Assembly: GCA_965243325.1 (NCBI GenBank)
Contig: CBDEUQ010000003.1
Coordinates: forward strand, 2,020,304 to 2,084,303
Reading direction: 5' to 3'
Source of the DNA: Alphaproteobacteria bacterium
GTDB lineage: Bacteria; Pseudomonadota; Alphaproteobacteria; UBA7887
DNA: 64,000 bases
Shown: piece by piece, positions 9,679 to 38,510 of the stretch
How the letters are laid out: each line of letters begins with the position of its first letter
Numbering within the stretch: the first letter of the stretch is position 1
Program-made: the position numbers and the translations under genes
The notes under the pieces: model-generated
Seen by the model: the letters and a program-made list of their open reading frames with translations, nothing else
Told to the model about the DNA's origin: nothing
Databases searched by the model: none

Positions 9679-10224
9679 GAACGAGCTATGGAACTGGAGA
9701 TAGCCGATCCAAGTTTCGGACGGCCGGGAGGATCTCAATTGGGTGCTGGTGACGGGGAAACGGCCGCGGAGGACACCACTGGGCAGGGACAGGAAGATGA
9801 AGGGAATGGCCGGCTCGGAGAAGCGGGAAGCGGACACTCTCCGTTTGAACCGGACCCTACGCGCAATAGGCCCAAACCCGGCCCAATCTCTTCCGAATCA
9901 GCTAGACCGCCGGGACGTGCTAAGGAACAGTCCGGTTCATCGGGCTCGGGTGGGGGCGACAGCTTTAGACGCAAACCCGATCTCGAAAAGCAACACATTG
10001 AGGAGCTAAAGCGCAGCCACTATGCCAGCCATTGCCAGATGTGCTTGTGCGAACGTTCGCCTCAAGAGTTAGCTCCAGCTGGCAGCTACATTGAGGCAGA
10101 AGAAGTACGTCAGAGCGTTGTGCATGCGCACCATACCGATTTAGTGTCGGCCGGCGGCGCACGTCACGCCGGCAACATTATTCTACTGTGCAAGTTACAT
10201 CACGACAACTACGGAAGGCAATTC
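9679..10224 (+). pseudogene. Segment 2 of the giant gene: low-complexity G/S/E-rich linker plus the first half of an HNH nuclease motif, cut by the IS256-family insertion
   Basis: In frame with 8527..8529 once the IS630 and one TA are removed (cta|gaa cga gct atg...). Carries ...HYASHCQMCLCERSP...VHAHHTDLVSAGGARHAGNIILLCKLHHDNYGRQF (CxxC...HxHH...GG...N...CxxHH). Confidence 0.7.
10217..10224. repeat. 8-bp target-site duplication (ggcaattc), left copy, IS256-family copy 1
   Basis: The same 8-mer recurs directly after the right IR at 11505..11512. Confidence 0.8.
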
Positions 10225-11504
10225 GGTGACGTAAGAATTTATGTGTCAGGTGGGAAGGGGGTACTCCCTGTGGTGACGACAACCACAAACAGGAGCACCC
10301 CGCATGTCCCAGCAAGCTGCGACGATCATGAGCCTACCCCAGGCCTTTGAGGTGGTGAAGGAGATGCAGGCAGGCGGACTGGACTGGGGCGAGGGCTACC
10401 GCCCGCTCGGCCGCCAGGCGCTGGCCGAGATCATCGAGGGCCGGATGGCCGAGGCGGTGGATCGCTGGCTCGACAACCTCGACGCCGGCGCGATGCGCGA
10501 CCGGCGCAACGGGACCTACCGCCGCTGCCTGCTGAGCGAGCTCGGCGACATCGAGCTCAACGTGCCGCGCACCCGGCACTTCTGCCCGACCGGGGTTGTG
10601 AAGAGCTACGCAAGGCGCGCGCCGGAGATCGACCGTGCCATCCTGGCCGGCTTCGTGCTGGGGCTTTCGACGCGCAAGGTGGGCGAGGTCCTGCTGGCCC
10701 TGCTCGGGCGCCCGGTCTCGGCCGCGACGGTGAGCCGGGTCTCCAAGACGCTCGACATGGCGGTCGAGGCCTTCCACCGCAGGCCGCTGAAGAACGCCTA
10801 CAAGGCGCTGATGCTCGACGGCGTGGTGCTGGCCCGCAAGACCGGCGCCGGCGCGCTCAGGAGGCCGGTCCTGGTGGCGCTCGGCATCCGCCCCGACGGC
10901 AAGAAGGAGATCATCGACTTCCATCTCGCCGTCAGCGAAGGCGCCCGCGAGTGGGAAGTGTTCCTCAACCGGCTGTACCACCGCGGGCTCACCGGCGAAG
11001 GCCTTGAGATGATCTGCGTCGATGGCGGCAAGGGCCTGCTGGCTGCCTTGCCGTTCGTCTATCCCGGCATCCCGGTTCAGAGGTGCTGGGCGCACAAGAT
11101 GCGCAACATCCTCAACAAGGTCCGCAAGGCCGACCAGGAGGCCGTCAAGGCCGATGTCCACGCCGTCATGAATGCAAAGAGCCGCCGCAAGGCCCAGAGC
11201 GCCGCCCGACGCTTCGCCGACCGCTGGCAAAGCACCTACCCCAAGGCCGTCGCCTGCCTGCGCAGCGATCTCGACGAGCTGCTCACCTGCTTCCGCTACC
11301 GGACCCTCGATGAGCGAAAGCGGGTCAGGACCACCAACGCCATCGAACGAAGGTTCCGGGAGGTCCGCAGACGAACCCGGCCCATGGGAACCTTCCAGGA
11401 CCGGACCTCAATGGACCGCGTCCTCTACGCGGTATTCATCCACGAAAACAAGTCTCAGGGAATCAGCACCCCCGTCTCCCTGACACATAACTCTTGACGT
11501 TACC
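10225..11504 (+). mobile_element. IS256-family insertion sequence, copy 1 (1,280 bp)
   Basis: Imperfect terminal IRs ggtgacgtaagaatttatgtgtca and tgacacataactcttgacgttacc (rc ggtaacgtcaagagttatgtgtca). Flanked by an 8-bp TSD. Identical over its full length to 37223..38502. Confidence 0.85.
10304..11497 (+). CDS. IS256-family (Mutator-type) transposase
   Basis: 397 aa with family hallmarks ...RNGTYRR...LNVPRTRHF... and ...QRCWAHKMRN.... Identical to 37302..38495. Confidence 0.9.
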   Translation: MSQQAATIMSLPQAFEVVKEMQAGGLDWGEGYRPLGRQALAEIIEGRMAEAVDRWLDNLDAGAMRDRRNGTYRRCLLSELGDIELNVPRTRHFCPTGVVKSYARRAPEIDRAILAGFVLGLSTRKVGEVLLALLGRPVSAATVSRVSKTLDMAVEAFHRRPLKNAYKALMLDGVVLARKTGAGALRRPVLVALGIRPDGKKEIIDFHLAVSEGAREWEVFLNRLYHRGLTGEGLEMICVDGGKGLLAALPFVYPGIPVQRCWAHKMRNILNKVRKADQEAVKADVHAVMNAKSRRKAQSAARRFADRWQSTYPKAVACLRSDLDELLTCFRYRTLDERKRVRTTNAIERRFREVRRRTRPMGTFQDRTSMDRVLYAVFIHENKSQGISTPVSLTHNS

Positions 11505-11512
11505 GGCAATTC
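11505..11512. repeat. 8-bp target-site duplication (ggcaattc), right copy, IS256-family copy 1
   Basis: Perfect match to 10217..10224. Confidence 0.8.
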
Positions 11513-11701
11513 AGCCGTGCCGGAATAAGTGCGGCTCTTCGGGACAAACCGAAGAGAATGTCGGTCTGCTACGACGGGGATTTGCACGTTAGTGGCCGGC
11601 AAATTAAACTTGAGGTGTCGGGCACGGGAGAGGTCGTGAGACTCTTCTTTACCGAGCACCACATCGCATACTGGTTGTCGCAGGAGTCAGCGTCAAATTG
11701 A
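11513..11701 (+). pseudogene. Segment 3 (62 codons plus stop) of the giant GHKL-HNH gene, downstream of the IS256-family insertion
   Basis: Continues the frame ...GRQF|SRAGISAALRDKPKRMSVCYDGDLHVSGRQIKLEVSGTGEVVRLFFTEHHIAYWLSQESASN* when one TSD copy is removed. Stop at 11699..11701. Confidence 0.6.
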
Positions 11702-12207
11702 AATGCGAAGTTTTGCGATCTTACTTTTCCGCGGAACGGCGTGTTGATTGGTTAATTTCGGGAGCGCGAACTCTCGCGCGCGGCGCCGTTGGAGCGTCAC
11801 CCTTTGAGATTTTCTGTGCCTTGGTTGGGGGTTGAAGGGTCTCGTTTTTTTTGCAGTTCGCCGCGGCGGTCAGGGTTTCGGGGCAGCGAGGCGCCCGGCC
11901 AGCATTCGGATCTCCAGCGTCTCGGTTACCGCTAGCTTGGACAAATGGTCGCGGCGTAGCGCGTAGCGGTCGTCGGCATCGTTCCGCGGATCCGGCTTCG
12001 CCGGCCCGAGGACAGGCTCCCGTGCGCGTGATCGAGAACATGCGGAAGTGCAGCGTCGTTGGGAGCGTATGCACCAACTGCTCCGGCTCGCGCCATTCCC
12101 CGATGCATCCCGCAGGCGCTTTGGCCGGGCCGAGCCGGCCATCCGCGTCCCGCAGGGGCACCATTCCGCCGTTCGACGAAATCAGACCGCCCGGAAAATC
12201 GGCGCTC

Positions 12208-12378
12208 ATGCTCTTGCGTTTGACGGCTGGCAGATCGAACGGCAGACGAGTACTTCCGTAATGGCGGGCGTGGCGCTCTCGTTGCCGGGGCAGAAGGTCG
12301 CTGGACAACGATTTTCGACCTCATGACAACGACTTACGCCACGTTTACCGTTACCTTGACCGACCGTGGCGTATAAGG
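12208..12378. repeat. Copy B of the ~175-bp direct repeat (partner of 3282..3466)
   Basis: See copy A. Contains an 11-bp inverted repeat cttacgccacg...cgtggcgtaTaag. Confidence 0.5.
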
Positions 12379-12558
12379 CGGGCGAACATTCGTTGACCCT
12401 TAAACTTTACGAGAAAGTCGCCGGAGACCTCATTTCACGGTCTGTGCCGTCTGCGAATTTCCGCAATGGAAATACTAGCCGCCGGAGGCCGGGGATTCCT
12501 CCAACGAAAAGGATTCGAACCCGGCCGGGAGGAAAGTGGCGGCGGGTCTCTTCGGTGT

Positions 12559-13434
12559 TCACGGTCCGTCTTGCTCCTTGTGGAACGTGTAGAGGCGGGT
12601 GAAGTCGGCGCCGGGCATGGCCCGCTTCATGGCGCGCAGGGTCTCGCCGACGGTGCCGCCCACCGGCGCCCGTTGGCCGGCATCCTGGACGGCGGCGAGG
12701 AACAGGTCGACGTCCTTCGACAGCAGGTCGATGGTGAAGCCGGCGTCGAAGGTGCCGGTGGCGACGCGCGTCGGGAACTTGTCGCTGGTCGCCGTGTTCC
12801 GCCCCGTCGACACGTTGAGCACGGCGATCATCGTCTCGAGATCGAGGCCCTGCGCCTCGCCGAACGCCACCGCTTCGGTCGTGGCCGTCATGGAGGCGGC
12901 CGACAACACGTTGTTGAGCAGCTTCATCGCCTGGCCCTGGCCGGGCTCGGCGCCGACGTGGAACAGGTTCCGCGCCATGACGCCGAGCGTTTCCCGGTGC
13001 GCTTCGAAGCGCCCGGCGTCGCCGGAGACCATCATCGCCAGCGTGCCTTCGGCGGCGCCGCGGGTGCCGCCGCTCACCGGCGCGTCGAGGTAGGCGATGC
13101 CCGCGTCCGCAAGGGCGCGGGCGACCGCCCCTGCCGCCTCCGGCCCGATCGTCGAGTGGTCGGCGAGGCAGCGCGTCCGGCTTCCGGCGGCGGCGGCGAT
13201 TTCGCCGACGACCGCCCGGACCGCGGGTCCGTCGGGCAGCGACAGGAGCACGAGGTCGGCGGCGTCGGCGACGGCGGCCGTCGACTCGCACACCCGGGCG
13301 CCCGCCGGCGCCCGCGCGGCGGTGCCGGCGGCGTCGTACACCGCGAGCGCGTATCCGGCGTCGGCGAGGCGGCGCGCCATGCGGCCCCCCATTTCGCCGA
13401 GTCCGACGAACCCGATGACCTCGCTGTCGCTCAT
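12559..13434 (-). CDS. NAD(P)-dependent 3-hydroxyisobutyrate dehydrogenase-family oxidoreductase (HIBADH / 2-hydroxy-3-oxopropionate reductase-like)
   Basis: 291 aa. N-terminal IGFVGLGEMGGRMARRL Rossmann motif. Family signatures ...DAPVSGG... and ...KLLNN.... Confidence 0.8.
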   Translation of the reverse strand: MSDSEVIGFVGLGEMGGRMARRLADAGYALAVYDAAGTAARAPAGARVCESTAAVADAADLVLLSLPDGPAVRAVVGEIAAAAGSRTRCLADHSTIGPEAAGAVARALADAGIAYLDAPVSGGTRGAAEGTLAMMVSGDAGRFEAHRETLGVMARNLFHVGAEPGQGQAMKLLNNVLSAASMTATTEAVAFGEAQGLDLETMIAVLNVSTGRNTATSDKFPTRVATGTFDAGFTIDLLSKDVDLFLAAVQDAGQRAPVGGTVGETLRAMKRAMPGADFTRLYTFHKEQDGP

Positions 13435-13560
13435 GCGGCCGCACTCCCGGTTGCCCGGCGCGGGGGATTGTCAAGCGGCGCCGGTTGGTTATCGTTCCGT
13501 TTCACCCGAGGCCCAGCGTAGCCAATCGTGCCGGCGGGCCGCAACGCGAGGGAGGCCCAC

Positions 13561-14028
13561 GTGCGCGTGATCGAAAGCTTCGATGCGATGAAGGCCCTGA
13601 TCGGCGAGGAGATCGGCGTGAGCCCGTGGGTCGACGTGACCCAGGAGCGGATCGACAAGTTCGCCGAGGCGACGGGCGACTTCCAGTGGATCCACGTCGA
13701 CCCCGACCGCGCGGCGCGCGAGCTGCCGGGCGGCAAGACGATCGCGCACGGCTTTCTCACACTCTCGCTGCTGCCGCAGATGGTCTACGAGATCTACCGC
13801 ATCGACGGCGTGGCGCACGGCCTCAACTACGGCAGCAACCGCATCCGCTTCACCTCGCCGGTGCCGGCGGGGAGCCGGCTGCGCGCACGGCTGCGGGTCA
13901 AGCACGCCGAGGACGTCAAGAACAACGGCCTGCGCGTCATCGGCGACGTGACCATAGAACTCGAGGGCTCGAGCCGCCCGGCGTGCGTCGCCGAGACCAT
14001 ATCGGTGGTCTACCCGGCGGCGGCGTGA
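13561..14028 (+). CDS. MaoC-like (R)-specific enoyl-CoA hydratase / hotdog-fold dehydratase
   Basis: Track ORF 13528..14028. A GTG at 13561 gives VRVIESFDAMKALIGEEIGVSPWVDVTQERIDKFAEATGDFQWIHVD..., a MaoC signature. The start choice is uncertain. Confidence 0.7.
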   Translation: MRVIESFDAMKALIGEEIGVSPWVDVTQERIDKFAEATGDFQWIHVDPDRAARELPGGKTIAHGFLTLSLLPQMVYEIYRIDGVAHGLNYGSNRIRFTSPVPAGSRLRARLRVKHAEDVKNNGLRVIGDVTIELEGSSRPACVAETISVVYPAAA

Positions 14029-14041: not shown

Positions 14042-14842
14042 TCACTTCGCGGTCAGGCCGCCGTCGAGGACGATCTCGGCCCCGGTCATCAGCGACGAGG
14101 CGTCGGAGGCGAGAAAGACGATCGCGCTCGCCACCTCGTCGGCGCGGCCCTTGCGGCCGATCGGCTGAAAGCCGCTCAGGAACGCCTGGGCCCCGTCGTA
14201 GTCCGCGTTCTGGATCTTCATCATCTTGTGCGCGACCTGATTCATCATCTCGGTCTCGATGATCCCCGGATGCACCGAGTTGACGCGGATGTTGTAGCCG
14301 AAATGCGCGCATTCGAGCGCCGCCGACTTGGTCAGCAGGCGCACCCCGCCCTTGGTCGCGCTGTAGCCGGCGCTGAGCGGCGAGCCGACGATGCCGGCGA
14401 CCGAGGAGAGGTTCACGATCGATCCGGACGCGCCGCCGGGCGGACACGTCTCCTTCAGCGTCCGCATGGCGTGCTTGACGCCGAGAAACACGCCTTCGAG
14501 GTTGATCGCGGCCTGCCGGCGCCACTCGTCGAGCGTCATCTCCTCGAGCGGTTTCTCGACGAAGATCCCGGCGTTGTTGACGACGACGTGCGGCCCGTCG
14601 TGGCGCGCCGCGGTGTCGGCGAACACGCGCGCCCAGTCCTCCTCCCGCGTCACATCGTGGGCGGCGAACGAGGCGTCGCCGCCGCCGTCGCGGATGCCCC
14701 GGACGGTCGCGGCGCCGGCCTCTTCGAGGACGTCGGTCACCACCACTGCCGCGCCGGCGGCGGCGAGCGCCTTCGCCGTCTCCGCGCCGATCCCGCGCGC
14801 CGCGCCGGTCACGATCGCCGTCCGTCCCGTCAATGCCGCCAT
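14042..14842 (-). CDS. Short-chain dehydrogenase/reductase (SDR) family oxidoreductase
   Basis: The internal ATG at 14842 gives a 266-aa product MAALTGRTAIVTGAARGIGAETAKAL... (TGxxxGIG), NNAG, and the catalytic Y-x3-K in ...AGYSATKGG.... Confidence 0.85.
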   Translation of the reverse strand: MAALTGRTAIVTGAARGIGAETAKALAAAGAAVVVTDVLEEAGAATVRGIRDGGGDASFAAHDVTREEDWARVFADTAARHDGPHVVVNNAGIFVEKPLEEMTLDEWRRQAAINLEGVFLGVKHAMRTLKETCPPGGASGSIVNLSSVAGIVGSPLSAGYSATKGGVRLLTKSAALECAHFGYNIRVNSVHPGIIETEMMNQVAHKMMKIQNADYDGAQAFLSGFQPIGRKGRADEVASAIVFLASDASSLMTGAEIVLDGGLTAK

Positions 14843-14948
14843 GAGTCCGCTCCCCGCCGCCCGGCGGCGCGAGCATAGCACGGGCCGCCGATTCGATAAT
14901 CCGCGAAGCCGCGTGTTATGACCGGGCGGCGTGCGACGGGGGGAGTAC

Positions 14949-16253
14949 ATGGCCGACGCGAAGACCGAACCGCGCGTGCCGACAAGCTTCTGGCAGTATA
15001 TCCGCTCGCTCGGCCCGGGGCTGGTGGTCGCCCTGACGTGGCTCGGCGCCGGCGACCTCGTCGATTCCGCCGTCGCGGGCGGCAACTACGGCTACACGCT
15101 GATGTGGGCGATGGCGTTGGCGCTGTTCGTCCGCTTCGTCTTCGTCTCGATCATCGCCAAGTACCAGCTCTGCAACCAGCACGGCGAGAGCGTGCTCTCG
15201 GGACTGAAGCGGGTGCACGTGGCGATGCCGCTCTTCGTCGCCGTCGTGGCGGTGATCTTCGGCCACATCTACGGCTCGTTCCTGGTGCGCGGCCTCGGCC
15301 TCGCGAGCGAGGCGCTGTTCCGCTTCGGCGACCCGTTCGTGTGGTCGGCGGTCTGGGTGGTGGCGGCGGCGGTGTTCGTGTACCGCGGCCTCTACCGGCG
15401 GCTGGAGGCGGTCTTCTACGTCTTTCTCGCCCTGCTCGGCGTGTCGGTGATCGGCGTCGCCGCGTGGAGCGGCCCCGACCCGGTGGCGGCGGCGAAGGGC
15501 GTGCTGCTTTTCGACGTGCCGGAGCAGCAGGGGTCCTACGGCGCGCTGCTCGTGATCACGTCGCTGATCGGCGCGGTCGGCGGCTCGATCGCCAATCTGC
15601 TCTATCCCTACTTCATCCAGCAGAAGGGGTGGCGCGGGCCGCGCTTCCGCCGCGTCCAGCTTTACGATCTCGCCTTCGGCGTCGGCGTGCTCGTGTTCCT
15701 CAACCTGTCGGTGTGGACCATCGGCGCCGAGGTCCTGCACGCGCGCGGCGAGACGATCGAAAGCCTGGACGACCTCGCCAAGCTGCTGACCATCGCCCTC
15801 GGCGACCTCGGCGCGCCGATCTTCTACGTCGGCGTGTTCGCCGCCGTCTACAGCTCGGTGATCGGCATGGCGATGGGCTTCGGCTATCTCGTCACCGACG
15901 CGGTACGCGTCCACCGCACGGCCGAGACGCTGCCCGCCGAGCCGTTCGACGCCGGCGCCCGGCCCGTCTACCGGATCGTCGTCGCGTGGTGCCTGTTCTC
16001 GCCGCTGGTATGGAGCCTTCCCGGCGCGCCGGACTTCATCTTCCTCACCATCGTCGGCAACGCGGCGTCGGTGATCGTGCTGCCGATCCTCTGCGGCGCC
16101 CTGTGGATTCTGACCGCGCGCCGAGTGCTCATCGGCGCCGAGTGGCGCAACAGGTGGTGGGAGAACGGCTTCCTCGCGGCGCTGTTCGTGCTGTCGATCT
16201 GGGGCGCGTGGCAGTCCGTCATCGCCATCGCCGGCGCCGTGGGGTGGGGGTAG
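14949..16253 (+). CDS. mntH: NRAMP-family divalent metal (Mn2+/Fe2+) transporter
   Basis: Track ORF 14931..16253. Probable start MADAKTEP at 14949. Multi-TM protein with NRAMP-type motifs ...LGPGLVVALTWLGAGDLV... and ...GYTLMWAM.... Confidence 0.8.
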   Translation: MADAKTEPRVPTSFWQYIRSLGPGLVVALTWLGAGDLVDSAVAGGNYGYTLMWAMALALFVRFVFVSIIAKYQLCNQHGESVLSGLKRVHVAMPLFVAVVAVIFGHIYGSFLVRGLGLASEALFRFGDPFVWSAVWVVAAAVFVYRGLYRRLEAVFYVFLALLGVSVIGVAAWSGPDPVAAAKGVLLFDVPEQQGSYGALLVITSLIGAVGGSIANLLYPYFIQQKGWRGPRFRRVQLYDLAFGVGVLVFLNLSVWTIGAEVLHARGETIESLDDLAKLLTIALGDLGAPIFYVGVFAAVYSSVIGMAMGFGYLVTDAVRVHRTAETLPAEPFDAGARPVYRIVVAWCLFSPLVWSLPGAPDFIFLTIVGNAASVIVLPILCGALWILTARRVLIGAEWRNRWWENGFLAALFVLSIWGAWQSVIAIAGAVGWG

Positions 16254-16327
16254 GCCCGGGCGGCGTGGCGCTTACGCGGCGCGCCGGGCCTTGAGCAAGG
16301 GGCCGGGCTGCCCGCGCCCCCGTCGCC

Positions 16328-17854
16328 TCAGCGTGCGCCCGTCGTCGCGCGCCGCGGCATGCGGATGAGGAGCACGAGCGGCATGACGGCGAGGGCGACG
16401 AGGGTCATCAGCTTGAAGTCGTTGACGTAGGCGATCGCGCCCGCCTGCCGGGTCAGCTCGGCGTTGAGCGCGGCGCGTCCGGCGGCGTCGGCGGCGGACC
16501 ACGGGCCGGGCAGGAGGTCGGCGTCGAACGGCGTGACGTGGGCGCCGAGCTCGGCGCGGTTGATCTGGGTGTAGCGCGTCACCAGCGCCACCAGCATGCT
16601 GACCGCGACCGAGCTGCCGAGGTTGCGCGCGAGGTTGAACAGGCCCGCCGCCTCCGTGCGGTAGCGGTCGTCGAGCGTCGCGAAGGTGCAGACGTTGATC
16701 GGCACGAAGTACATGCCGAGGCCGAAGCCCTGCAGCAGCCCGGTCCACACGAGGGTGAAGACGTCGACGTCGGTGTTGAAGCCCGCCATCGCCCACATCG
16801 ACCACGCGATCAGCGCGAGGCCGGCGGCCATGAGGATCCGCATGTCGACGACGCTGCTCAGCCGCGCGACCAGAAGCATCGCCGCCATCGCGCCGACACC
16901 GCGCGGCGCGAGCACGACGCCCACGGTGATGACCGGATAGTCCATCAGGTGCTGGAGGAACGGCGGCAGCAGCACGAGGCCGGTAAGCAGCAGCGCGCCG
17001 AAGGCGGCGATGAGGGTAAGTCCGACGAGGACGTTGCGGTCCGCGAAGACGTGCAGGTCGATGAACGGGCGGTGGCGCGTCGTCGCCGTATGGACGATGA
17101 ACATGTAGAAGGCGGCGCCGGCCACGCTCGCCTCGATGACGATCTCGGCGCTGTCGAACCAGTCCTCGAGCTCGCCGCGGTCGAGCATGAGCTGGAAGCT
17201 GCCGATCGCGGTGCCGAGCAGCGCGAAGCCGAACCAGTCGAACCGCCGCAGCCGGTCGCGCGCCGTCTCGGGCACGAAGGCGAGAAGCCCGAGCAGCGCC
17301 AGCACGCCGAACGGCAGGTTGACGAAGAACACCCACCGCCAGTCGTAGACCTCGGTGAGCCAGCCGCCCAGCGTCGGGCCGACGATGGGGCCGATCATCA
17401 CGCCGCTGCTCCAGATCGCCATCGCCGAGCCGTGCTGCTCGCGCGGATAGGTGTCGAGCATGATCGACTGCGAGAGCGGGACGAGGAACGCGCCGCACGC
17501 CCCCTGGAGGAGGCGGTAGACGACGATCTCCTCGAGCGAGGTGGCGATGCCGCACAGCATCGAGGCGACGGTGAAGCCGGAGATCGCGAACACGAAGAGG
17601 CGCTTGCGGCCGAACCGCCCGGCGAGGAAGCCGGTCGGCGGCATGAAGATCGCCGTCGTCACGATGTAGGAGGTTATCACCCAGGCAATGCGGTCCTGGG
17701 TCGTCAGCAGCGACCCCTGCATGTTGGGCAGCGCGACGTTGGCGATCGTCATGTCGAGCGCCTGCATGATCGTCGCGATCATCACCGTGATTGTGATCAT
17801 GATCCGCCGGGCGCCGAGGGAGCGGGGCGCCGCTCCGGTCGCGGCATCGGCCAT
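16328..17854 (-). CDS. emrB: MFS transporter, DHA2 (EmrB/QacA) family drug-efflux permease
   Basis: 508 aa, 14-TM type. ...MQALDMTIANVALPNMQGSL... is the EmrB-family N-terminus. Adjacent to a membrane-fusion gene. Confidence 0.85.
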   Translation of the reverse strand: MADAATGAAPRSLGARRIMITITVMIATIMQALDMTIANVALPNMQGSLLTTQDRIAWVITSYIVTTAIFMPPTGFLAGRFGRKRLFVFAISGFTVASMLCGIATSLEEIVVYRLLQGACGAFLVPLSQSIMLDTYPREQHGSAMAIWSSGVMIGPIVGPTLGGWLTEVYDWRWVFFVNLPFGVLALLGLLAFVPETARDRLRRFDWFGFALLGTAIGSFQLMLDRGELEDWFDSAEIVIEASVAGAAFYMFIVHTATTRHRPFIDLHVFADRNVLVGLTLIAAFGALLLTGLVLLPPFLQHLMDYPVITVGVVLAPRGVGAMAAMLLVARLSSVVDMRILMAAGLALIAWSMWAMAGFNTDVDVFTLVWTGLLQGFGLGMYFVPINVCTFATLDDRYRTEAAGLFNLARNLGSSVAVSMLVALVTRYTQINRAELGAHVTPFDADLLPGPWSAADAAGRAALNAELTRQAGAIAYVNDFKLMTLVALAVMPLVLLIRMPRRATTGAR

Positions 17855-17872: not shown

Positions 17873-19072
17873 TCAGAGGTCCGGCGCGAGCCCCCCGGCA
17901 ACGCCGTCGAACCAGTCCAGAGCGCGGTCGACGAATGGCGGCAGCGTGCGCTCGTGGCCGGTGTCGACGGTCACCGTGGCGCTCATGCCGACGCGCAGCG
18001 GCGGGTCGCCGGGGCGCTCGACGATGGCGAAGCGCACGGGCAGGCGTTGCACCACCTTGACCCAGTTGCCGGTGGCGTTCTGCGGCGGCAGCAGCGAGAA
18101 CTCGGCCCCGGTCGCCGGGCTGAAGCTCGTCACGTGCGCCTGCCATTCGTGCTGCGGATAGGCATCGACGGTCAGGGTCGCCGGCTGGCCGAGGGCAAGG
18201 TGGGTGAGGTCGCTTTCCTTGAGGTTGGCTTCGAGCCAGATGGCCGCGGTCTCGACGAGGCTGATCTTCGCCTCGCCGGCCTCGATGAAGGTCCCCGGCC
18301 TCAGGCCCACGCGGGCGACGATGCCGTCGGCGGGCGCCCGCACGACCGTGTTCTCGAGGGCGAGGGCGCGGCCGTCGCGCCGCGCGCGGGCATTGTTGTA
18401 GCGCGCGAAGTCCTCGTCGGGCGTCGTCGGGTCGCCGCCGAGCCGGGCCAGCACCTCGTCGCGCTCGCGCTCGGCGACCGCCGCGGTCTGGCGCGCCATC
18501 GCCAGGTCGTGCCGGACTTCGTCGAGCCTCGCGACGGCGATCGCGCGGCGCTCGACGAGCGCGCTCTGGCGCTCGAACTCGCTCTCGTAGTAGCTCACGT
18601 CGGTGCGCGCCAGCGCCAGCTGCTCCTCCTTCTGCCGGTAGCGGGCGCGGAGCGCCGCGATCTCGGTGCGCACCATCGAGAGCTGCGCCTCCGCTTCCTC
18701 GAGGGCGATGCGGAACGGCTCGTCGTCGATGCGGAACAGCACCGTGCCCCACGCCACCGTGTCGTTGGTGCTGACCGGAACCTCGACCACCCGGCCCTTG
18801 ACCTCGGGCGCGACGGCGACCTTGTCGGCACGGATGTAGGCATTGTCGGTGGTGACGAACCGGCCGCTCTCGACCCAGTAGCGGGCGCCGTACACGGCCC
18901 CGACGAGAGGCACGCCGACGAGCAGCACGAGGCGGATGGCGCCGCGCACGAGACGCGCGACCCCCCGCCCGGCGCGCGCCAGAGGGGGCCGCTTCGGCTC
19001 CCGCTCCGGCCGCGGCAGCGGCGTCACTCGGGCGGGGTGCTGGCGAGTCTCGTCGGCGGCCGGATCAGCCAT
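17873..19072 (-). CDS. emrA: HlyD-family membrane-fusion (secretion) protein, EmrA-like
   Basis: 399 aa. N-terminal TM segment, coiled-coil region, then ...LSLLPPQNATGNWVKVVQRLPVR..., a typical EmrA C-terminus. Directly upstream of emrB on the same strand. Confidence 0.8.
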   Translation of the reverse strand: MADPAADETRQHPARVTPLPRPEREPKRPPLARAGRGVARLVRGAIRLVLLVGVPLVGAVYGARYWVESGRFVTTDNAYIRADKVAVAPEVKGRVVEVPVSTNDTVAWGTVLFRIDDEPFRIALEEAEAQLSMVRTEIAALRARYRQKEEQLALARTDVSYYESEFERQSALVERRAIAVARLDEVRHDLAMARQTAAVAERERDEVLARLGGDPTTPDEDFARYNNARARRDGRALALENTVVRAPADGIVARVGLRPGTFIEAGEAKISLVETAAIWLEANLKESDLTHLALGQPATLTVDAYPQHEWQAHVTSFSPATGAEFSLLPPQNATGNWVKVVQRLPVRFAIVERPGDPPLRVGMSATVTVDTGHERTLPPFVDRALDWFDGVAGGLAPDL

Positions 19073-21510: not shown

Positions 21511-21745
21511 CGTATTCCTCCATACCCGAGACGCGGCCCGATATCGGCGCGAGAAGATACCGGCGGGCAAGCCTAGCGCGCGGCTAGGCCGGCCGGCATT
21601 GCGACAGCCTGCCGTTCCGTTACAGTTTTTTGCTCTTTTTCGGCGGGCTCCAGCGTTGTTGTTGACCGGCATTCCCGGGCAGTGCCACGCTTTCGTCGCG
21701 ACTCCAGGCGTCAGCGCACCGGGCCGGGCGCGGGAAGGAGGCGGC

Positions 21746-24286: not shown

Positions 24287-24314
24287 TCCTTCCCCAACTT
24301 TTCCGGTGTTCGCC

Positions 24315-25958: not shown

Positions 25959-25962
25959 CGGC

Positions 25963-27904: not shown

Positions 27905-27906
27905 AC

Positions 27907-29416: not shown

Positions 29417-29434
29417 CGACCGGAGGAGGCGCGG

Positions 29435-29737
29435 ATGAATCTGACCCCGCGAGAGAAGGACAAGCTGCTGGTGGCGATGGCGGCCTCGGTGGCGCGGCGC
29501 CGGCTGGAGCGCGGCGTCAGGCTCAATCACCCCGAGGCGGTGGCGCTGATCACCGACTTCGTGGTCGAGGGCGCACGCGACGGGCGCACGGTGGCGGCGC
29601 TGATGACCGCCGGCGCCGAGGTGCTCCGGCGCGACCAGGTGATGGAGGGCGTGCCCGAGATGATCGGCGAAATCCAGGTCGAGGCGACGTTCCCCGACGG
29701 CACCAAGCTCGTCACCGTGCACCAACCGATTCGATAG
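29435..29737 (+). CDS. ureA: Urease gamma subunit
   Basis: 100 aa [39 protein letters not shown]..., a near-canonical UreA. Confidence 0.95.
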
Positions 29738-29749
29738 GGGGGCCGATCC

Positions 29750-30067
29750 ATGATCCCGGGCGAAATCCTGCCGCGGGCGGGCGACATCGTTCTCAACGAA
29801 GGCCGCGCCGCCGTCACCCTGACCGTCGTCAACAGGGGCGATCGTCCCGTGCAGGTCGGCAGCCACTACCATTTCGCCGAGGCCAACGCGGCGCTCGACT
29901 TCGACCGCGCGGCGGCGCGCGGGCGGCGGCTCGACGTGCCGTCGGGCACGGCGGTGCGCTTCGAGCCCGGCCAGAGCCGCGACGTGCGCCTGATCGCCTA
30001 CGCCGGCCGGCGCCACGTCGTCGGCTTCAACCGGGCGGTCATGGGGCCGCTCGACGGGGAGGCGTGA
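29750..30067 (+). CDS. ureB: Urease beta subunit
   Basis: 105 aa [19 protein letters not shown]...[13 protein letters not shown]..., a canonical UreB. Confidence 0.95.
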
Positions 30068-30069
30068 GC

Positions 30070-31778
<1,709 letters not shown>

Positions 31779-31779
<1 letters not shown>

Positions 31780-32228
31780 TGCGCCGGGTCGCGCACGTGG
31801 CGGCGGCGGGGCGATGGCCGGCGGCGGCGGCGCGCGACAGCGTTACGCTCGCGTGGGACGACCGCCACCGCCGCCGCGTACGCCTGGTGAGCGACCGCGG
31901 CGCGCCGTTCCTGCTCGATCTCGAGCGCGCCACGGCGCTCGGCGACGGCGACGGTCTGGCGCTCGACGACGGCGGCTGGGTGGCGGTCGTCGCCGCGCCG
32001 GAGCCGGTGGCCGAAGTCCGCACCGCCGACCCGCGCGCCCTTGCCCGGCTTGCCTGGCACCTCGGCAACCGCCACGTCCCGGCGCAGATTCTCGGCGACG
32101 GCGTGCGGTTTCGCGACGACCGGGTGATCGTCGACATGGTCGCCGGGCTCGGCGCCGCGGTCGTCCGCCTACAGGCGCCGTTCGACCCGGAGCGCGGCGC
32201 CTATCACGACCGCCGCGGCGATGGATGA
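31779..32228 (+). CDS. ureE: Urease accessory protein UreE
   Basis: ATG overlaps the ureC stop (TGATG). 149 aa, UreE-like. Confidence 0.75.
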
Positions 32229-32892
32229 CGCGGCGCTCTGCCGCCTGCTGGCGTGGACCTCGCCGGCCTTCCCGGTCGGCGGCTACAGCTACAGCCACGG
32301 CCTGGAGACCGCGGTCGCCGTGGGGCTGGTGGCGGACGCCGCCGGGCTCCGCGAATGGACCGCGGACGCGCTCGAGTACGGCGCGGGCCGCGTCGACGGC
32401 GCCTGGCTCGCCGCCGCGCACGACGCGGCCCGGGCCGGGGACTGGCCGCGCTTCGAGCGGGTGGCGGCGGACGCCGCGGCGCAGCGCGCAAGCGCCGAGA
32501 CCGCGCTCGAGGCGATGGCGCAGGGCGCGGCGTTCCTCGCCACCGTGCGCGCCGCGTGGCCGCACCGGTGGTTCGACCGGGCGGACGGCGTCCCCCTCGT
32601 GCACGCGGTGGCGGTGGGGCTTGCGGCGGCGGCGCACCGGGTCCCCTGCCACGCCGCGCTCGTCGCGGCGCTGCACGGATTCGCCGCCAACCTCGTTTCC
32701 GCGGGCGTGCGCCTGATCCCGCTCGGCCAGACCGACGGCCAGCGCGTGCAGGCGGCGCTCGAACCCGTCGTCCGCCGCGTCGCGACGGCCGCCGAACGGG
32801 ACCGGGGCGAGACGCCCGGCACCGCGACGCCGCTCGCCGACTGGTGCGCGGCGGCCCACGAAACCCAGCATGTAAGGCTGTTCCGATCATGA
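32221..32892 (+). CDS. ureF: Urease accessory protein UreF
   Basis: 223 aa. ...[21 protein letters not shown]... is the UreF N-terminal motif. Confidence 0.85.
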
Positions 32893-33524
32893 CGCATTCC
32901 GCTCACGGCCCCGCCCGCATCGGCATCGGCGGCCCCGTCGGCTCCGGCAAGACCGCGCTCGCCGACGCCCTCTGCAAGCGCCTGCGCGGCGACTGGGAGA
33001 TCGCGGTCGTAACGAACGACATCTACACCCGGGAGGACGCCAACTTCCTCGTCCGCTCGGGCGCGCTGGTGGCCGAGCGCATCGCCGGCGTGGAGACCGG
33101 GGGCTGTCCGCACACCGCCATCCGCGAGGACGCCTCCATCAACCTCGCGGCGGTCGCGGCGATGAACGCCCGGTTCCCGGACCTCGACCTGATCCTGATC
33201 GAGTCCGGCGGCGACAACCTTGCCGCCACCTTCAGCCCCGAGCTGGCCGACATCACGCTCTACGTCATCGACGTGGCCGCCGGCGACAAGATCCCGCGCA
33301 AGGGCGGGCCCGGCATCACGCGTTCCGACCTGCTGGTGATCAACAAGATCGATCTCGCGCCGCTGGTCGGCGCCGACCTCGGCGTGATGGACCGCGATGC
33401 GCGCAAGATGCGGGGCGAGCGCCCCTTCGTTTTCGCCAACCTCAAGGCCGGCGACGGGCTGGCGCGCATCGCCGACTTCGTGCTGACCCAGACCGGCCTC
33501 GCGGGCGCGCCCGCCGCATCGTAA
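32889..33524 (+). CDS. ureG: Urease accessory GTPase UreG
   Basis: ATG at 32889 (ATGA overlap with ureF), in frame inside track ORF 32253..33524. P-loop [11 protein letters not shown], then ...ESGGDNL... and ...VINKIDLA.... Confidence 0.9.
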
Positions 33525-33599
33525 GTCCGCCCCGCGCGGCGCGCCCCGACCGCCGGGCGGCGGCCGGAGCGCGGAGCGGCGGGGGACTGCGGCCGCTCC

Positions 33600-34076
33600 C
33601 TAATCGTCGTCGTCGTCCCAGTCGTCGTCGTACCGGTCGCCGTGACGGCGGTGCCAGCGGTCGCTCATGGACAGCGCGCCGTCGCCGTTGCGGTCCAGCC
33701 GCTCCACGACGGCCGCGAGCGGTCGGTCGTATTCGGCGCGGCTGACGACGGCGTCGCCGTCGGCGTCGAGGAACTGGAAGGCCCGCACCGTCAGCGGCCG
33801 CGTCGTCTCGTGCCAGACACCGGCGAACTCGTCGAGGTCGAGGTTTCCGTCGCCGTTGCCGTCGTGGGCCGCGTGGCGCGCGTTGCGCACCGTGTCGATC
33901 TCGGCCTGCGTCAGCTTGCCGTCGCCGTCGGCGTCGACCGACCGGAACATGTCCATCGCCATGACCGCGAACGGCCCCTTGGCCAAGTGGGCGTGGCCCG
34001 CGTAGCCGGCGACCGCGACTCCGACCACGGCGACCGCCGCGCCGGCTCCGATCCAGGCCATCGTTCTCTTTTTCAT
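33600..34076 (-). CDS. Secreted or periplasmic EF-hand calcium-binding protein
   Basis: Track ORF 33600..34133. Probable start MKKRTMAWIGAGAAVAVVGVAVAG (signal peptide) at 34076. Four EF-hand loops (DADGDGKLTQAE, DGNGDGNLDLDE, DADGDAVVSRAE, DRNGDGALSMSD) and an acidic C-terminal tail DDDWDDDDD. Confidence 0.8.
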   Translation of the reverse strand: MKKRTMAWIGAGAAVAVVGVAVAGYAGHAHLAKGPFAVMAMDMFRSVDADGDGKLTQAEIDTVRNARHAAHDGNGDGNLDLDEFAGVWHETTRPLTVRAFQFLDADGDAVVSRAEYDRPLAAVVERLDRNGDGALSMSDRWHRRHGDRYDDDWDDDDD

Positions 34077-34246
34077 CGTTCCGCTCCCTTGTGGGTTGTC
34101 GATGCGCCGGAACGTGGGCCGCGCCTGTCGCAAAAGCTTGTCCCGCGGGCTCCTTTTTCGTCGCGAACGCTGTCCGGCGGGCCGGTTGACAGACTTTGTT
34201 ACACTTTCGTCCCGCGTCCGCCGGCGCGCCGCATTATCGGTCCCTC

Positions 34247-34966
34247 ATGGAGCCTGAGCCGCACGTCCTCGTCGTCGACGACCACCGGGACATCCGCGAG
34301 CCGCTGGCCCGCTACCTGGAGCGTCACGGCCTGCGCGCTTCGGTCGCCGACGGGGCGCGGGCCGCGCGCCGCGTTCTCGAGCAGGCGGCCGTGGATCTCG
34401 TCGTGCTCGACGTCATGATGCCGGGCGAGGACGGTCTGGCGCTGTGCCGGCACCTGCGCGAGACCACGCGGATTCCCGTCATCCTGCTGACGGCAATGGC
34501 CGAGGACACCGACCGGATCGTCGGCCTCGAGATGGGCGCCGACGACTATGTGACCAAGCCGTTCAACCCGCGCGAGCTGCTGGCCCGCGTCAAGGCGGTG
34601 ATCCGGCGCGCGCGCAGCCTGCCGCCCGACCGCGAGCCGAAGGCCGAGGGGCGGATCGCCTTTGATCGCTGGACGCTGGACGCGGACCGTCGCGAGCTTA
34701 CCGACGAGGGCGGAGTCGTCATACCGTTGTCCACCGGCGAGTTCCGGCTGCTCATGGCCCTGGTCGAGCGCCCGGGAATGGTGCTGTCGCGCGACCGGCT
34801 GCTGGACCTCACGCGCGGCCGCCGTGCGATGCCGTTCGACCGCGCGGTCGACAACCAGGTGAGCCGGCTCAGGCGCAAGATCGAACGCGATCCGGCGAGG
34901 CCGGAACTGATCGTCACCGTGTGGGGCGGCGGCTACCGCTTCGCCGGCAAGGTCGAGCGCGCATGA
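34247..34966 (+). CDS. OmpR-family two-component response regulator
   Basis: Track ORF 34196..34966. Probable start MEPEPHVLVVDDH at 34247. Receiver residues DD...D...K. C-terminal winged helix ...RLLDLTRGRRAMPFDRAVDNQVSRLRRKIE.... Confidence 0.85.
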   Translation: MEPEPHVLVVDDHRDIREPLARYLERHGLRASVADGARAARRVLEQAAVDLVVLDVMMPGEDGLALCRHLRETTRIPVILLTAMAEDTDRIVGLEMGADDYVTKPFNPRELLARVKAVIRRARSLPPDREPKAEGRIAFDRWTLDADRRELTDEGGVVIPLSTGEFRLLMALVERPGMVLSRDRLLDLTRGRRAMPFDRAVDNQVSRLRRKIERDPARPELIVTVWGGGYRFAGKVERA

Positions 34967-36396
34967 GGGCGCTACCGCGGAGCCTCGCCGGCCGGCTCGC
35001 GCTCGTGCTGCTGCTGGCGCTCGTCGCGGCGCAGGGCATCGCCGTGTTCCTGTTCGCCGGCGAACGCGCCGCCGCCGTGCATCACGCCTATCGCGAGAAC
35101 GTCGTCGCGCGGACGGCGACCGTCGTGCGCCTCATCCAGGGCACGCCGCCCGCGCTCCACGACTCCGTTGCCGCCGCGGCGCGAACGCGCTTCGTCCGCT
35201 ATTCGCTGACCCCGGAGCCGGTCGTCGAGCACCTCGGCAGCGGCGAGCGGGCGGAAGCGATCGCCCGCGACCTCGCGCGCGCCCTCGGCGTCGACCGCGG
35301 CCGGGTGCGCATCGCCCCCCTGTGGCGGCCGCATCGACACGGCGAGCACGATGACGATGACGATCACGATGACGACGATCACGATGACGAGCATGACGAC
35401 GACGATGACGACGATCACGAGCGGCCGCGGTGGAAGCGGCACTGGTTCGCCGTTTCCATCGCCATGCCCGACGACGGCTGGCTCAACGTCCAGGTGGGAC
35501 CGCCGCCCGGCGCCCGGCCATTCGGATGGACGTTTCTGCTCTCCTTCGCCCTGTCGGCGCTGGCGGTCGGCGGCGTCGCGGTGTGGGCGGCGCGGCGCCT
35601 GACGCGGCCGATGCGCCGTCTTGCCGATGCCGCCGATGCGCTCGGGCGGGGCGAGGATGTCGGCGACCTGCCGGAGGCGGGGCCGCTCGAGACGCGCCGG
35701 ACCGTCCGCGCCTTCAACCGGATGCGTGACCGCATCGACCGTTTCGTCCGCGACCGCACGACGATGCTCGCGGCCATCTCGCACGATCTCCGGACGCCGA
35801 TCGCGGGCCTGCGTCTCCAGGCCGAGTTCGTCGCCGATGAGGAGGTGCGCAAGAGGATCGCGTCCGGCCTCGACGAGATGCAACGGATGACCGAAGAGAC
35901 GCTGGCATTCGCCCGCGAGGACATGACCCGCGAGGAGACGCGGACGGTGGACCTTCGCGCGCTCGTGGACAGCGTGGCGGCGGACCTCGCGGACCTCGGG
36001 CACGACGTATCGCTGGCCGACGGTGGGCGCGTGCTGGTGCGCTGCCGGCCGGCGGCCCTGCGCCGCGCCGTGGCGAACCTGCTCGAGAACGCCGCCGTCT
36101 ACGGCAGGCGCGGCCGCGCCCGCATCGACCGGCCGGAAGGCGACGTCCGCGTCGCGGTCGACGACGAGGGGCCGGGGATCGCCGATGCCGACCTCGAGCG
36201 GGTTTTCGAGCCCTTCGTCAGGCTCGAGGGGTCGCGCAGCCGCGAGACCGGCGGCAGCGGGCTCGGCCTCGCCATCGCCCGCACCGTCGTCCGCGGCCAC
36301 GGCGGCGACGTGCGGCTGGAGAACCGCAAGGAAGGCGGCCTGCGCGCGACCCTCACGCTGCCGCGCGCCGCGGTCGTCGAGGGCGGAGCGGCGTAG
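34963..36396 (+). CDS. Sensor histidine kinase. The periplasmic domain contains a His/Asp-rich tract
   Basis: ATGA overlap with the response-regulator stop. Two TM segments flank a periplasmic domain containing HRHGEHDDDDDHDDDDHDDEHDDDDDDDHERPR. HAMP. H-box ...AAISHDLRTPIAGL.... HATPase motifs ...LLENAAVYG..., DDEGPGI, GGSGLGLAIA. Confidence 0.85.
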   Translation: MRALPRSLAGRLALVLLLALVAAQGIAVFLFAGERAAAVHHAYRENVVARTATVVRLIQGTPPALHDSVAAAARTRFVRYSLTPEPVVEHLGSGERAEAIARDLARALGVDRGRVRIAPLWRPHRHGEHDDDDDHDDDDHDDEHDDDDDDDHERPRWKRHWFAVSIAMPDDGWLNVQVGPPPGARPFGWTFLLSFALSALAVGGVAVWAARRLTRPMRRLADAADALGRGEDVGDLPEAGPLETRRTVRAFNRMRDRIDRFVRDRTTMLAAISHDLRTPIAGLRLQAEFVADEEVRKRIASGLDEMQRMTEETLAFAREDMTREETRTVDLRALVDSVAADLADLGHDVSLADGGRVLVRCRPAALRRAVANLLENAAVYGRRGRARIDRPEGDVRVAVDDEGPGIADADLERVFEPFVRLEGSRSRETGGSGLGLAIARTVVRGHGGDVRLENRKEGGLRATLTLPRAAVVEGGAA

Positions 36397-36399
36397 GCC

Positions 36400-36546
36400 A
36401 TGCGATGTCCCGGCCCGTACTTCCATCCGCTGCAGGGTGACGGGGCAGGCCGCTACGCCGTACGCTTGACCGCCAACTACCGGGTCACGTTCGGATCGGG
36501 CGATGACGGCGCGGCAGACGTGGACATGGAGGACTATTGTCGATGA
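36400..36546 (+). pseudogene. higB: N-terminally truncated higB (RelE/ParE-superfamily toxin) remnant encoding only the C-terminal ~48 aa
   Basis: MRCPGPYFHPLQGDGAGRYAVRLTANYRVTFGSGDDGAADVDMEDYCR matches the C-terminal half of HigB toxins (...LHPLKGDREGYWSI.VR.NWRI.F.F..GDAY.V.YEDYH). The N-terminal ~45 aa are absent. It begins 4 nt after the kinase stop. ATGA overlap with higA. Confidence 0.6.
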
Positions 36547-36848
36547 TGGAGAGGCATCCTTCCGTGATGCCGGTGCATCCCGGAGAGATCCTGCGTGAGG
36601 ATATTCTGCCCGCGGTTTCGATTACCGGAACGGCGATGGCAGCAGCGCTCGGGATCTCCGAGCAGACCCTTTACGACATCCTTGACGAAAAGCAGCCTGT
36701 GACGGCCGAGATGGCCGTGCGGTTCGGCAAGCTGTTCGGCAATGGCGCCCGCTTCTGGGCGACTCTCCAATGCCGCTACGATCTGGCAATTGCGGAACGC
36801 TCCGTGGAGGTCTCGAATATCCCGACCCTCGAAGCGAGGGCGAGTTGA
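36543..36848 (+). CDS. higA: HigA-family antitoxin (XRE-type HTH)
   Basis: MMERHPSVMPVHPGEILREDILPAVSITGTAMAAALGISEQTLYDILDEKQPVTAEMAVRFGKLFGNGARFWATLQ..., a canonical HigA. Track ORF 36537..36848 uses a TTG 6 nt upstream. Confidence 0.85.
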   Translation: MMERHPSVMPVHPGEILREDILPAVSITGTAMAAALGISEQTLYDILDEKQPVTAEMAVRFGKLFGNGARFWATLQCRYDLAIAERSVEVSNIPTLEARAS

Positions 36849-37214
36849 CGCTCCGAAGGGGATGACGGTGTGTTCGCACCGTCACGGCAAGGAAGGGGTG
36901 GCGACATTCGCGCTCGTCTCTCAGGTGCTCAGTCAGTCGGCATGGACACCCGATGTTCTGGAGGAAAGGCAGCATGATTTGATCGGGCGGCTCAAATCGG
37001 AATGGCGTCTTGGCTAAGCGCCGGGGTGCACTGTCGCCGATCGCTCCCCGATTGGCCTCGTTTGGGCAAGCCCCGGCGGCTCGGCAGGTGGGGAATGTAC
37101 GGAGGAGCCGCCGGCCGTGGAGCCGCTGACTCGAAACGGTGGCAAGCGTCTGCCAGAGGTCGATGCTTTCCTCGTATGATCGTACCCTATGCCAAGCGGA
37201 AACCACACCAGTCA

Positions 37215-37222
37215 AGCCACTC
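37215..37222. repeat. 8-bp target-site duplication (agccactc), left copy, IS256-family copy 2
   Basis: Repeated at 38503..38510, directly after the right IR. Confidence 0.8.
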
Positions 37223-38502
37223 GGTGACGTAAGAATTTATGTGTCAGGTGGGAAGGGGGTACTCCCTGTGGTGACGACAACCACAAACAGGAGCACCCCG
37301 CATGTCCCAGCAAGCTGCGACGATCATGAGCCTACCCCAGGCCTTTGAGGTGGTGAAGGAGATGCAGGCAGGCGGACTGGACTGGGGCGAGGGCTACCGC
37401 CCGCTCGGCCGCCAGGCGCTGGCCGAGATCATCGAGGGCCGGATGGCCGAGGCGGTGGATCGCTGGCTCGACAACCTCGACGCCGGCGCGATGCGCGACC
37501 GGCGCAACGGGACCTACCGCCGCTGCCTGCTGAGCGAGCTCGGCGACATCGAGCTCAACGTGCCGCGCACCCGGCACTTCTGCCCGACCGGGGTTGTGAA
37601 GAGCTACGCAAGGCGCGCGCCGGAGATCGACCGTGCCATCCTGGCCGGCTTCGTGCTGGGGCTTTCGACGCGCAAGGTGGGCGAGGTCCTGCTGGCCCTG
37701 CTCGGGCGCCCGGTCTCGGCCGCGACGGTGAGCCGGGTCTCCAAGACGCTCGACATGGCGGTCGAGGCCTTCCACCGCAGGCCGCTGAAGAACGCCTACA
37801 AGGCGCTGATGCTCGACGGCGTGGTGCTGGCCCGCAAGACCGGCGCCGGCGCGCTCAGGAGGCCGGTCCTGGTGGCGCTCGGCATCCGCCCCGACGGCAA
37901 GAAGGAGATCATCGACTTCCATCTCGCCGTCAGCGAAGGCGCCCGCGAGTGGGAAGTGTTCCTCAACCGGCTGTACCACCGCGGGCTCACCGGCGAAGGC
38001 CTTGAGATGATCTGCGTCGATGGCGGCAAGGGCCTGCTGGCTGCCTTGCCGTTCGTCTATCCCGGCATCCCGGTTCAGAGGTGCTGGGCGCACAAGATGC
38101 GCAACATCCTCAACAAGGTCCGCAAGGCCGACCAGGAGGCCGTCAAGGCCGATGTCCACGCCGTCATGAATGCAAAGAGCCGCCGCAAGGCCCAGAGCGC
38201 CGCCCGACGCTTCGCCGACCGCTGGCAAAGCACCTACCCCAAGGCCGTCGCCTGCCTGCGCAGCGATCTCGACGAGCTGCTCACCTGCTTCCGCTACCGG
38301 ACCCTCGATGAGCGAAAGCGGGTCAGGACCACCAACGCCATCGAACGAAGGTTCCGGGAGGTCCGCAGACGAACCCGGCCCATGGGAACCTTCCAGGACC
38401 GGACCTCAATGGACCGCGTCCTCTACGCGGTATTCATCCACGAAAACAAGTCTCAGGGAATCAGCACCCCCGTCTCCCTGACACATAACTCTTGACGTTA
38501 CC
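37223..38502 (+). mobile_element. IS256-family insertion sequence, copy 2 (identical to 10225..11504)
   Basis: Identity to copy 1 begins at ggtgacgtaag and ends at ...gacgttacc. Its own distinct 8-bp TSD. Same orientation as copy 1, offset exactly 26,998 bp. Confidence 0.85.
37302..38495 (+). CDS. IS256-family transposase (identical to 10304..11497)
   Basis: Identical 397-aa translation in the ORF track. Confidence 0.9.
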   Translation: MSQQAATIMSLPQAFEVVKEMQAGGLDWGEGYRPLGRQALAEIIEGRMAEAVDRWLDNLDAGAMRDRRNGTYRRCLLSELGDIELNVPRTRHFCPTGVVKSYARRAPEIDRAILAGFVLGLSTRKVGEVLLALLGRPVSAATVSRVSKTLDMAVEAFHRRPLKNAYKALMLDGVVLARKTGAGALRRPVLVALGIRPDGKKEIIDFHLAVSEGAREWEVFLNRLYHRGLTGEGLEMICVDGGKGLLAALPFVYPGIPVQRCWAHKMRNILNKVRKADQEAVKADVHAVMNAKSRRKAQSAARRFADRWQSTYPKAVACLRSDLDELLTCFRYRTLDERKRVRTTNAIERRFREVRRRTRPMGTFQDRTSMDRVLYAVFIHENKSQGISTPVSLTHNS

Positions 38503-38510
38503 AGCCACTC
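38503..38510. repeat. 8-bp target-site duplication (agccactc), right copy, IS256-family copy 2
   Basis: Perfect match to 37215..37222. Confidence 0.8.

Follow-up and report, generated by a model that had tools for sequence, protein, structure and literature searches.

Insertion sequences (ISs) of the IS256 family are about 1.2–1.5 kb long and, as ISfinder describes them, carry one transposase open reading frame (ORF) and imperfect terminal repeats of a few tens of base pairs. Two identical copies of an element of this family, here called copy A and copy B, lie in a stretch of 64,000 nucleotides (hereafter, the window) from a genome labelled Alphaproteobacteria bacterium (assembly GCA_965243325.1, contig CBDEUQ010000003.1, positions 2,020,304–2,084,303), where they bracket urea transport and urease genes. 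We consider it about 90 per cent probable that the pair arose when one active IS was recently inserted at two places in separate events.

The only relative of the transposase with a solved structure is that of ISCth4 from Clostridium thermocellum (PDB 6xg8; PMC7780238). Like the element studied here, ISCth4 encodes one Mutator-type DDE transposase with a CxxH motif and catalytic residues that align, makes 8-bp target duplications, and has a −35-like hexamer at its right end and a −10-like hexamer at its left end, to be joined across a 5–6 bp junction. The two elements differ in length (1,503 bp vs 1,280 bp here) and their transposase sequences have clearly diverged; moreover, the present element resides in a GC-rich host, has 9-bp duplications around approximately one-third of its copies, and is known from sequence alone. 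IS256 itself, from Staphylococcus and Enterococcus, belongs to the same family as judged by the profiles NF033543 and PF00872, and, according to work cited in PMC7780238, gives rise to circles and hybrid promoters. Tn4001, a composite transposon, is likewise built from IS256 (cited in PMC3303853); the arrangement in the window differs from it in that independent insertions surround native chromosome, with no foreign cargo and with unmatched outer duplications. In pAsa5 of Aeromonas salmonicida, copies of IS11/ISAs3 (IS256 family) recombine and thereby excise the type III secretion region (PMC3303853). There, as here, several IS256-family copies bracket a gene region, and the outcome is the one proposed for the window in an earlier description of it (hereafter, the initial annotation); the pAsa5 deletions, however, were shown by PCR in derived strains, whereas here the parental arrangement alone is observed. 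ISPaes3 of Paracoccus aestuarii, for which a hybrid promoter using a −35 box in the end of the element has been suggested (PMC3281130), resembles our element by description, being an alphaproteobacterial IS256-family IS whose terminal repeats are imperfect and whose target duplications are 8 bp long. Unlike our element, which has 21 left ends in one related genome, ISPaes3 is a low-copy IS (1–2 copies), and it is 1,393 bp long.

Copies A and B (Table 1) are directly oriented and identical at 1,280 of 1,280 aligned positions. Their starts are offset by 26,998 bp, and 25,718 bp of DNA (11505–37222) separate them. The identity reaches 2 bp past the left tip, into the target duplications, and 0 bp past the right tip. 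Each copy is enclosed by a perfect 8-bp duplication of its own, GGCAATTC for copy A and AGCCACTC for copy B. The terminal inverted repeats, GGTGACGTAAGAATTTATGTGTCAGG and GGTAACGTCAAGAGTTATGTGTCAGG, are imperfect and match at 21 of 26 positions; with up to three mismatches allowed, either end occurs exactly twice in the window, whereas 0 occurrences are expected from shuffled sequences. The boundaries of the element are correct, since exactly these 1,280 bp recur in nine additional copies from other assemblies, in each case with a duplication abutting them. The identity, the offset and the two distinct duplications had been pointed out in the initial annotation, and all were reproduced by the alignment, which gave zero mismatches, and by direct reading of the flanks.

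The initial annotation had also placed the element in the IS256 family, an assignment that several lines of evidence uphold. A single ORF of 397 codons occupies bases 80–1273 of the IS, and its product scores 298.5 bits against NCBIfam NF033543, the IS256-family transposase equivalog (cut-off 150), and 255.7 bits against Pfam PF00872, Transposase_mut (cut-off 21). Residues 60–376 align with the ISCth4 transposase (E = 2.3e-39), and the putative catalytic residues D172, D240 and E348, together with C261/H264, fall opposite the D, D, E and CxxH of that enzyme (residue numbers and roles in ISCth4 from PMC7780238). Target duplications could be read at 23 insertions and are 8 bp long at 15 of them and 9 bp at the other eight. 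The profile score, the DDE and C/DxxH motifs, the size, ORF and terminal repeats, and the 8- or 9-bp duplications thus all agree with membership in the family. In a plasmid collection, a nucleotide search with the IS returned no match, and the best protein matches are IS256-family transposases that are merely 30–35 per cent identical; transposases with 76–88 per cent identity are abundant in ENA metagenomes. The element is an unnamed, new member of a known family.

The insertion sites were examined in close relatives that lack the IS. A contig from ERZ25069412 (L010) matches window positions 19950–37222 at 98.2 per cent identity and 38503–41024 at 98.4 per cent. The two alignments overlap by exactly the eight bases of the copy B duplication, which are present once (L010 positions 17266–17273), and L010 has a precise empty site B. 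Since L010 spans that site, the interior of the bracketed segment is contiguous with outside DNA in an IS-free strain. A record found via the 101-aa helix-turn-helix (HTH) protein encoded upstream of site B is a 1-kb contig that stops approximately 100 bp short of the site.

At site A, the evidence comes from a broken gene. Copy A was inserted into a strain-specific low-GC island, within a large HNH gene that an IS630-family element also breaks, 0.5 kb upstream in the same frame. When copy A and one duplication are excised from the sequence, the interrupted frame is lengthened by 62 codons to a stop; when both ISs are excised, the result is an ORF of 1,420 codons whose product can be aligned over its full length with many intact proteins approximately 1,420 aa long. 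The best homologue (P0002) is 76 per cent identical and exactly 1,420 aa long, and no gap falls at either junction in eight homologues. The island is absent from L037 (98.5 per cent identity, same assembly as L010) and L038 (97 per cent identity), in both of which approximately 165 bp of unrelated spacer link window position 2872 to 12574. Because relatives at approximately 98 per cent identity have neither copy B nor the island around copy A, the two insertions are younger than the split from these relatives. Independent and recent insertion, as the initial annotation had proposed, is thereby supported by the matched duplication of each copy, the empty site B and the restored frame at site A in the first respect, and by zero mismatches and the relatives at 97–98.5 per cent identity in the second.

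We weighed this reading against three others. Two identical, directly oriented copies that bracket cargo are what a composite transposon would look like, and the IS256 family has provided one in Tn4001; had such a unit of approximately 28.3 kb been inserted as a whole, it would have imported the urease and efflux genes. Yet the outer duplications differ (GGCAATTC to the left of copy A, AGCCACTC to the right of copy B) and each copy has a matched pair of its own, L010 runs uninterrupted at 98 per cent identity from the segment interior across the empty site B to the outside, in L037 and L038 the left part of the segment lies beside the TacA gene, free of the IS, and the GC content of the interior (0.71) equals that of the chromosome outside (0.72). 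The window thus shows two flanking IS copies and neither a shared outer duplication nor foreign cargo or the same unit elsewhere. The mismatch of the outer duplications, the collinear IS-free relatives and the even GC content together exclude arrival as a composite transposon, to which we attach a negligible probability. Identity of the copies could instead have been maintained in old insertions by gene conversion, which occurs among dispersed IS copies in bacteria, but the absence of copy B and of the copy A island from relatives at 97–98.5 per cent identity places the insertions after that split, and in the metagenome-assembled genome (MAG) CBDEUP01 some copies of the same IS differ by 2–11 mismatches and have not been homogenised. 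We therefore consider long-term conversion highly unlikely.

An assembly artefact, in which only one copy truly exists or a chimeric junction runs through the repeat, would be in keeping with the metagenomic origin of the relatives whose accessions begin with CBDEU, given that repeats of 1.3 kb are classic break and join points. It would also be in keeping with one copy in a related MAG (L015, contig CBDEUP010000006.1, locus 4888, minus strand), which is full length with intact ends and has the unrelated 9-bp flanks AATAGTCCC and TCTCTTCAA. Mismatched flanks of this kind are the signature expected from recombination between two copies, or from a chimeric assembly join. A join through the repeat would pair unrelated flanks, however, whereas both copies in the window have perfectly matched duplications and unique flanks, and the window is collinear with L010 through site B and with the eight intact homologous proteins through site A. 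The assembly collapse that the initial annotation had named as a possible refutation is accordingly very improbable, and curators may treat mis-assembly as unlikely while noting that the left copy lies in a decaying, strain-specific island. Four points nonetheless weigh against two recent insertions of an active element. Evidence from the genome itself spans the window only, and the copy numbers come from related assemblies; the CBDEU relatives are metagenome-assembled, as the window genome perhaps is, and repeat polishing could inflate the identity of copies; transposition intermediates cannot be revealed by sequence; and an empty site A was not found in a near-identical strain, the relatives lacking the whole island. 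A scan of JGI metagenomes for an empty site A gave zero matches, and look-ups of exact proteins returned no record for MaoC, the 3-hydroxyisobutyrate-dehydrogenase-like protein, the IS630-family transposase or the proteins P0001 and P0127.

That the IS is active is indicated by its abundance in a narrow group of genomes. Approximately 30 further copies occur across three related assemblies; 11 of the 26 full-length copies are 100 per cent identical, and most of the 26 have a duplication of their own. Nine more loci, in GCA_965243315.1 and ERZ26051807, code for exactly this transposase; all nine match the IS at the DNA level with 0 mismatches, and an 8- or 9-bp duplication of its own encloses each. 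A 34-base probe for the left end, run against GTDB species representatives, matched 21 sites in CBDEUP01 and two in the MAG CBDEUT01, both of which are labelled ‘Alphaproteobacteria bacterium’. A scan of JGI metagenomes for the exact left end returned zero matches. Full-length copies in these two MAGs have 0–11 mismatches relative to the window copy; some others are truncated or, as in L018 and L035, are interrupted by other insertions. The IS is in a burst, multiplying within a narrow group of uncultured Alphaproteobacteria.

Given this abundance, the spacing of copies A and B needs no special explanation. In a related genome of approximately 5.2 Mb with 21 left ends, we estimate that chance alone would yield about two pairs no more than 27 kb apart (210 pairs × 2 × 27 kb / 5.2 Mb), which makes a close pair unremarkable; that genome holds one pair approximately 55 kb apart. 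The pair in the window is not special but a by-product of high copy number. Copies 100 per cent identical to that in the window were seen in both MAGs (L014 and L016 in CBDEUP01; L020 and L028 in CBDEUT01). Their presence in two species-representative MAGs suggests either very recent transfer between species or mis-binning; the two species-level MAGs apparently come from one study, and either binning error or transfer could account for the sharing. A broader scenario, in which a live burst crosses species boundaries in one community and the pair may act as a working 28.3-kb composite unit or recombination cassette, that is, a module for gain or loss of urea uptake and urease, strikes us as improbable.

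By analogy with its family, the element most likely moves by a copy-out/paste-in route, in which the DDE transposase would join both IS ends into a circle, the abutted ends would rebuild a promoter that drives the transposase, and the circle would then integrate, leaving an 8- or 9-bp duplication. The layout of the ends is compatible with such a route: the hexamer TTGACG stops 5 bp short of the right tip and the hexamer TAAGAA occupies the left end from base 8 onwards, so that a circle spacer of 5–6 bp would bring them to a spacing of 17–18 bp and create a candidate junction promoter. ISCth4 has the same hexamer layout across its circle junction, and IS256 hybrid promoters are cited in the same study (PMC7780238). 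The initial annotation had further mentioned hybrid promoters as a known product of IS256-family elements. At the right junction of copy B, the candidate was rejected, as no hybrid promoter matching the sigma-70 consensus is present there.

Copy B was inserted into the intergenic spacer between the HTH gene and the first of two Ldh_2-family dehydrogenase genes, upstream of an operon whose native promoter it may sever. The first Ldh_2 gene is co-oriented with the copy B transposase, and any effect of copy B on expression would most likely fall on this gene. That the operon has lost contact with its native upstream or promoter region, or is read through from the IS, would be likelier than a hybrid promoter. 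The insertion of copy A, by comparison, was probably neutral in its location, since a site in a decaying, strain-specific island makes it costless.

In principle, the copies could recombine as 1.28-kb direct repeats, with loss or duplication of 26,998 bp and, with it, of the urea transporter and urease genes; no deletion, amplification or circle was seen, nor could the present data reveal one. None of the bracketed genes is obviously essential, which suggests that a deletion should be viable, and deletion, amplification or mobilisation via the pair is plausible. Short-pattern searches are blind to the products of deletion or duplication because all their junctions exist in the parental arrangement. 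The pair amounts to routine genome wear rather than a new kind of mobile unit and has little import beyond annotation; its value lies in recording, for uncultured Alphaproteobacteria, an IS256-family element that is unnamed and currently active, and in flagging a 27-kb stretch, with urea transport and urease genes, that could be lost or duplicated.

Table 1. Coordinates in the window of the IS copies, their insertion sites and the surrounding genes (IRL and IRR, left and right inverted repeats).
Feature	Coordinates	Strand	Remarks
IS256-family insertion sequence, copy A	10225–11504	+	1,280 bp; IRL 10225–10250, IRR 11479–11504
Copy A transposase gene	10304–11497	+	397 aa
IS256-family insertion sequence, copy B	37223–38502	+	Identical to copy A
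Copy B transposase gene	37302–38495	+	Same product as in copy A
Copy A 8-bp target duplication	10217–10224 (left), 11505–11512 (right)		GGCAATTC; perfect match
Copy B 8-bp target duplication	37215–37222 (left), 38503–38510 (right)		AGCCACTC; perfect match
Strain-specific low-GC island	2873–12573		9,701 bp; GC 0.61 vs 0.71; absent from two relatives
Remains of gene with sacsin-like N-terminus and HNH C-terminus	5002–11701	+	1,420 aa; pieces 5002–8529, 9679–10224 and 11513–11701
IS630-family element	8530–9676	−	1,147 bp; TA target duplication
IS630-family transposase ORF	8527–9609	−	360 aa; NF033545, 277 bits (cut-off 100)
IS110-family transposase ORF	3876–5057	−	Left part of island; NF033542, 327 bits (cut-off 140)
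IS1380-family degenerate 5′ remnant	11721–12383	−	
IS1380-family second remnant	3015–3472		Weak NF033539 match for ORF 3015–3284
Core chromosomal part of bracketed DNA	12574–37214		GC 0.71; 97–98.5 per cent identity to IS-free L010, L037 and L038
3-hydroxyisobutyrate-dehydrogenase-like	12559–13434	−	
MaoC dehydratase	13528–14028	+	
SDR	within 14042–15085	−	
Nramp transporter	14931–16253	+	
DHA2 MFS pump	16328–17854	−	
HlyD-type adaptor	17873–19072	−	
Molybdopterin oxidoreductase	within 19393–21906	−	
AraC regulator	within 21362–22642	+	
urtABCDE	about 22814–28602		
ureDABCEFG	28577–33524		
EF-hand protein	within 33600–34133	−	
Response regulator	within 34196–34966		
Histidine kinase	within 34921–36396		
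Small 48-aa ORF	36400–36546		
101-aa HTH protein	36543–36848		
Ldh_2-family dehydrogenase, first of two tandem	38551–39597	+	ATG 48 bp past copy B right tip (40 bp past duplication)

Besides copy A, the island holds several other IS-derived sequences (Table 1). Its two IS1380-family remnants are in the same orientation, are 71 per cent identical over approximately 400 bp and bound the island internally, and at its right edge the final codons of the 3-hydroxyisobutyrate-dehydrogenase-like gene are cut or altered. The transposase ORF of the IS630-family element reaches the tip of the element (8527–8531), where its TAG stop codon consists of the duplicated TA and one flanking base. At the left edge of the island lies a pair of genes for a GNAT toxin and a TacA antitoxin (1995–3001).

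The restored 1,420-aa protein has no match in Pfam or PADLOC; its N-terminus shows a weak, sub-threshold match to the sacsin-type ATP-binding (P-loop) domain, and the family is named ‘HNH endonuclease’ in some databases. This family is large and uncharacterised, with at least 255 relatives. One member, in Pelagibius sp. CAU 1746, has an integrase and a type I restriction-modification system as neighbours, and on another contig a member is found in a conjugative-looking region with relaxase and SSB genes. The 1,420-aa gene may be a defence or selfish-element gene.

Of the 25.7 kb that the copies bracket, approximately 24.6 kb are core chromosome, the remainder being the last 1.06 kb of the island. 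With genes assigned by Pfam and NCBIfam profiles, most of the content given in the initial annotation stands: urtABCDE-ureDABCEFG, a pump pair and a two-component system are present. The name ‘emrAB’ has to be softened to EmrAB-like, as the DHA2 MFS pump passes TIGR00711 while scoring below the cut-off of the specific EmrB model, and the adaptor is under the EmrA/EmrK cut-off. The ‘calcium/metal’ label of the two-component system was a guess, based on the kinase, which has an Asp/His-rich tract, and on the adjoining EF-hand protein. The tract, HGEHDDDDDHDDDDHDDEHDDDDDDDHE, is long and lies in the predicted sensor region of the histidine kinase; the EF-hand protein, encoded divergently from the kinase, has an Asp-rich tail and weak similarity to lanmodulin and XopAW. 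Together, the two proteins suggest a metal-sensing module adjoining the urease genes.

Three further observations concern the bracketed DNA. The Rfam model RF02514 (Helicobacter ‘5′ ureB sRNA’) matches with 100 bits at 30221–30508 on the minus strand, antisense within the gene for the urease alpha subunit, which is most probably due to a conserved coding sequence and not to a real antisense RNA. L037 carries approximately 0.9 kb of extra DNA (its positions 1921–2855) between the MFS pump and Nramp genes, which the window lacks at 16265–16303. The small 48-aa ORF and the HTH gene form a pair (36400–36848) just upstream of site B. On the other side of copy B, the two tandem Ldh_2-family paralogues (38551–40674) share approximately 75 per cent DNA identity at a spacing of 1,047 bp.

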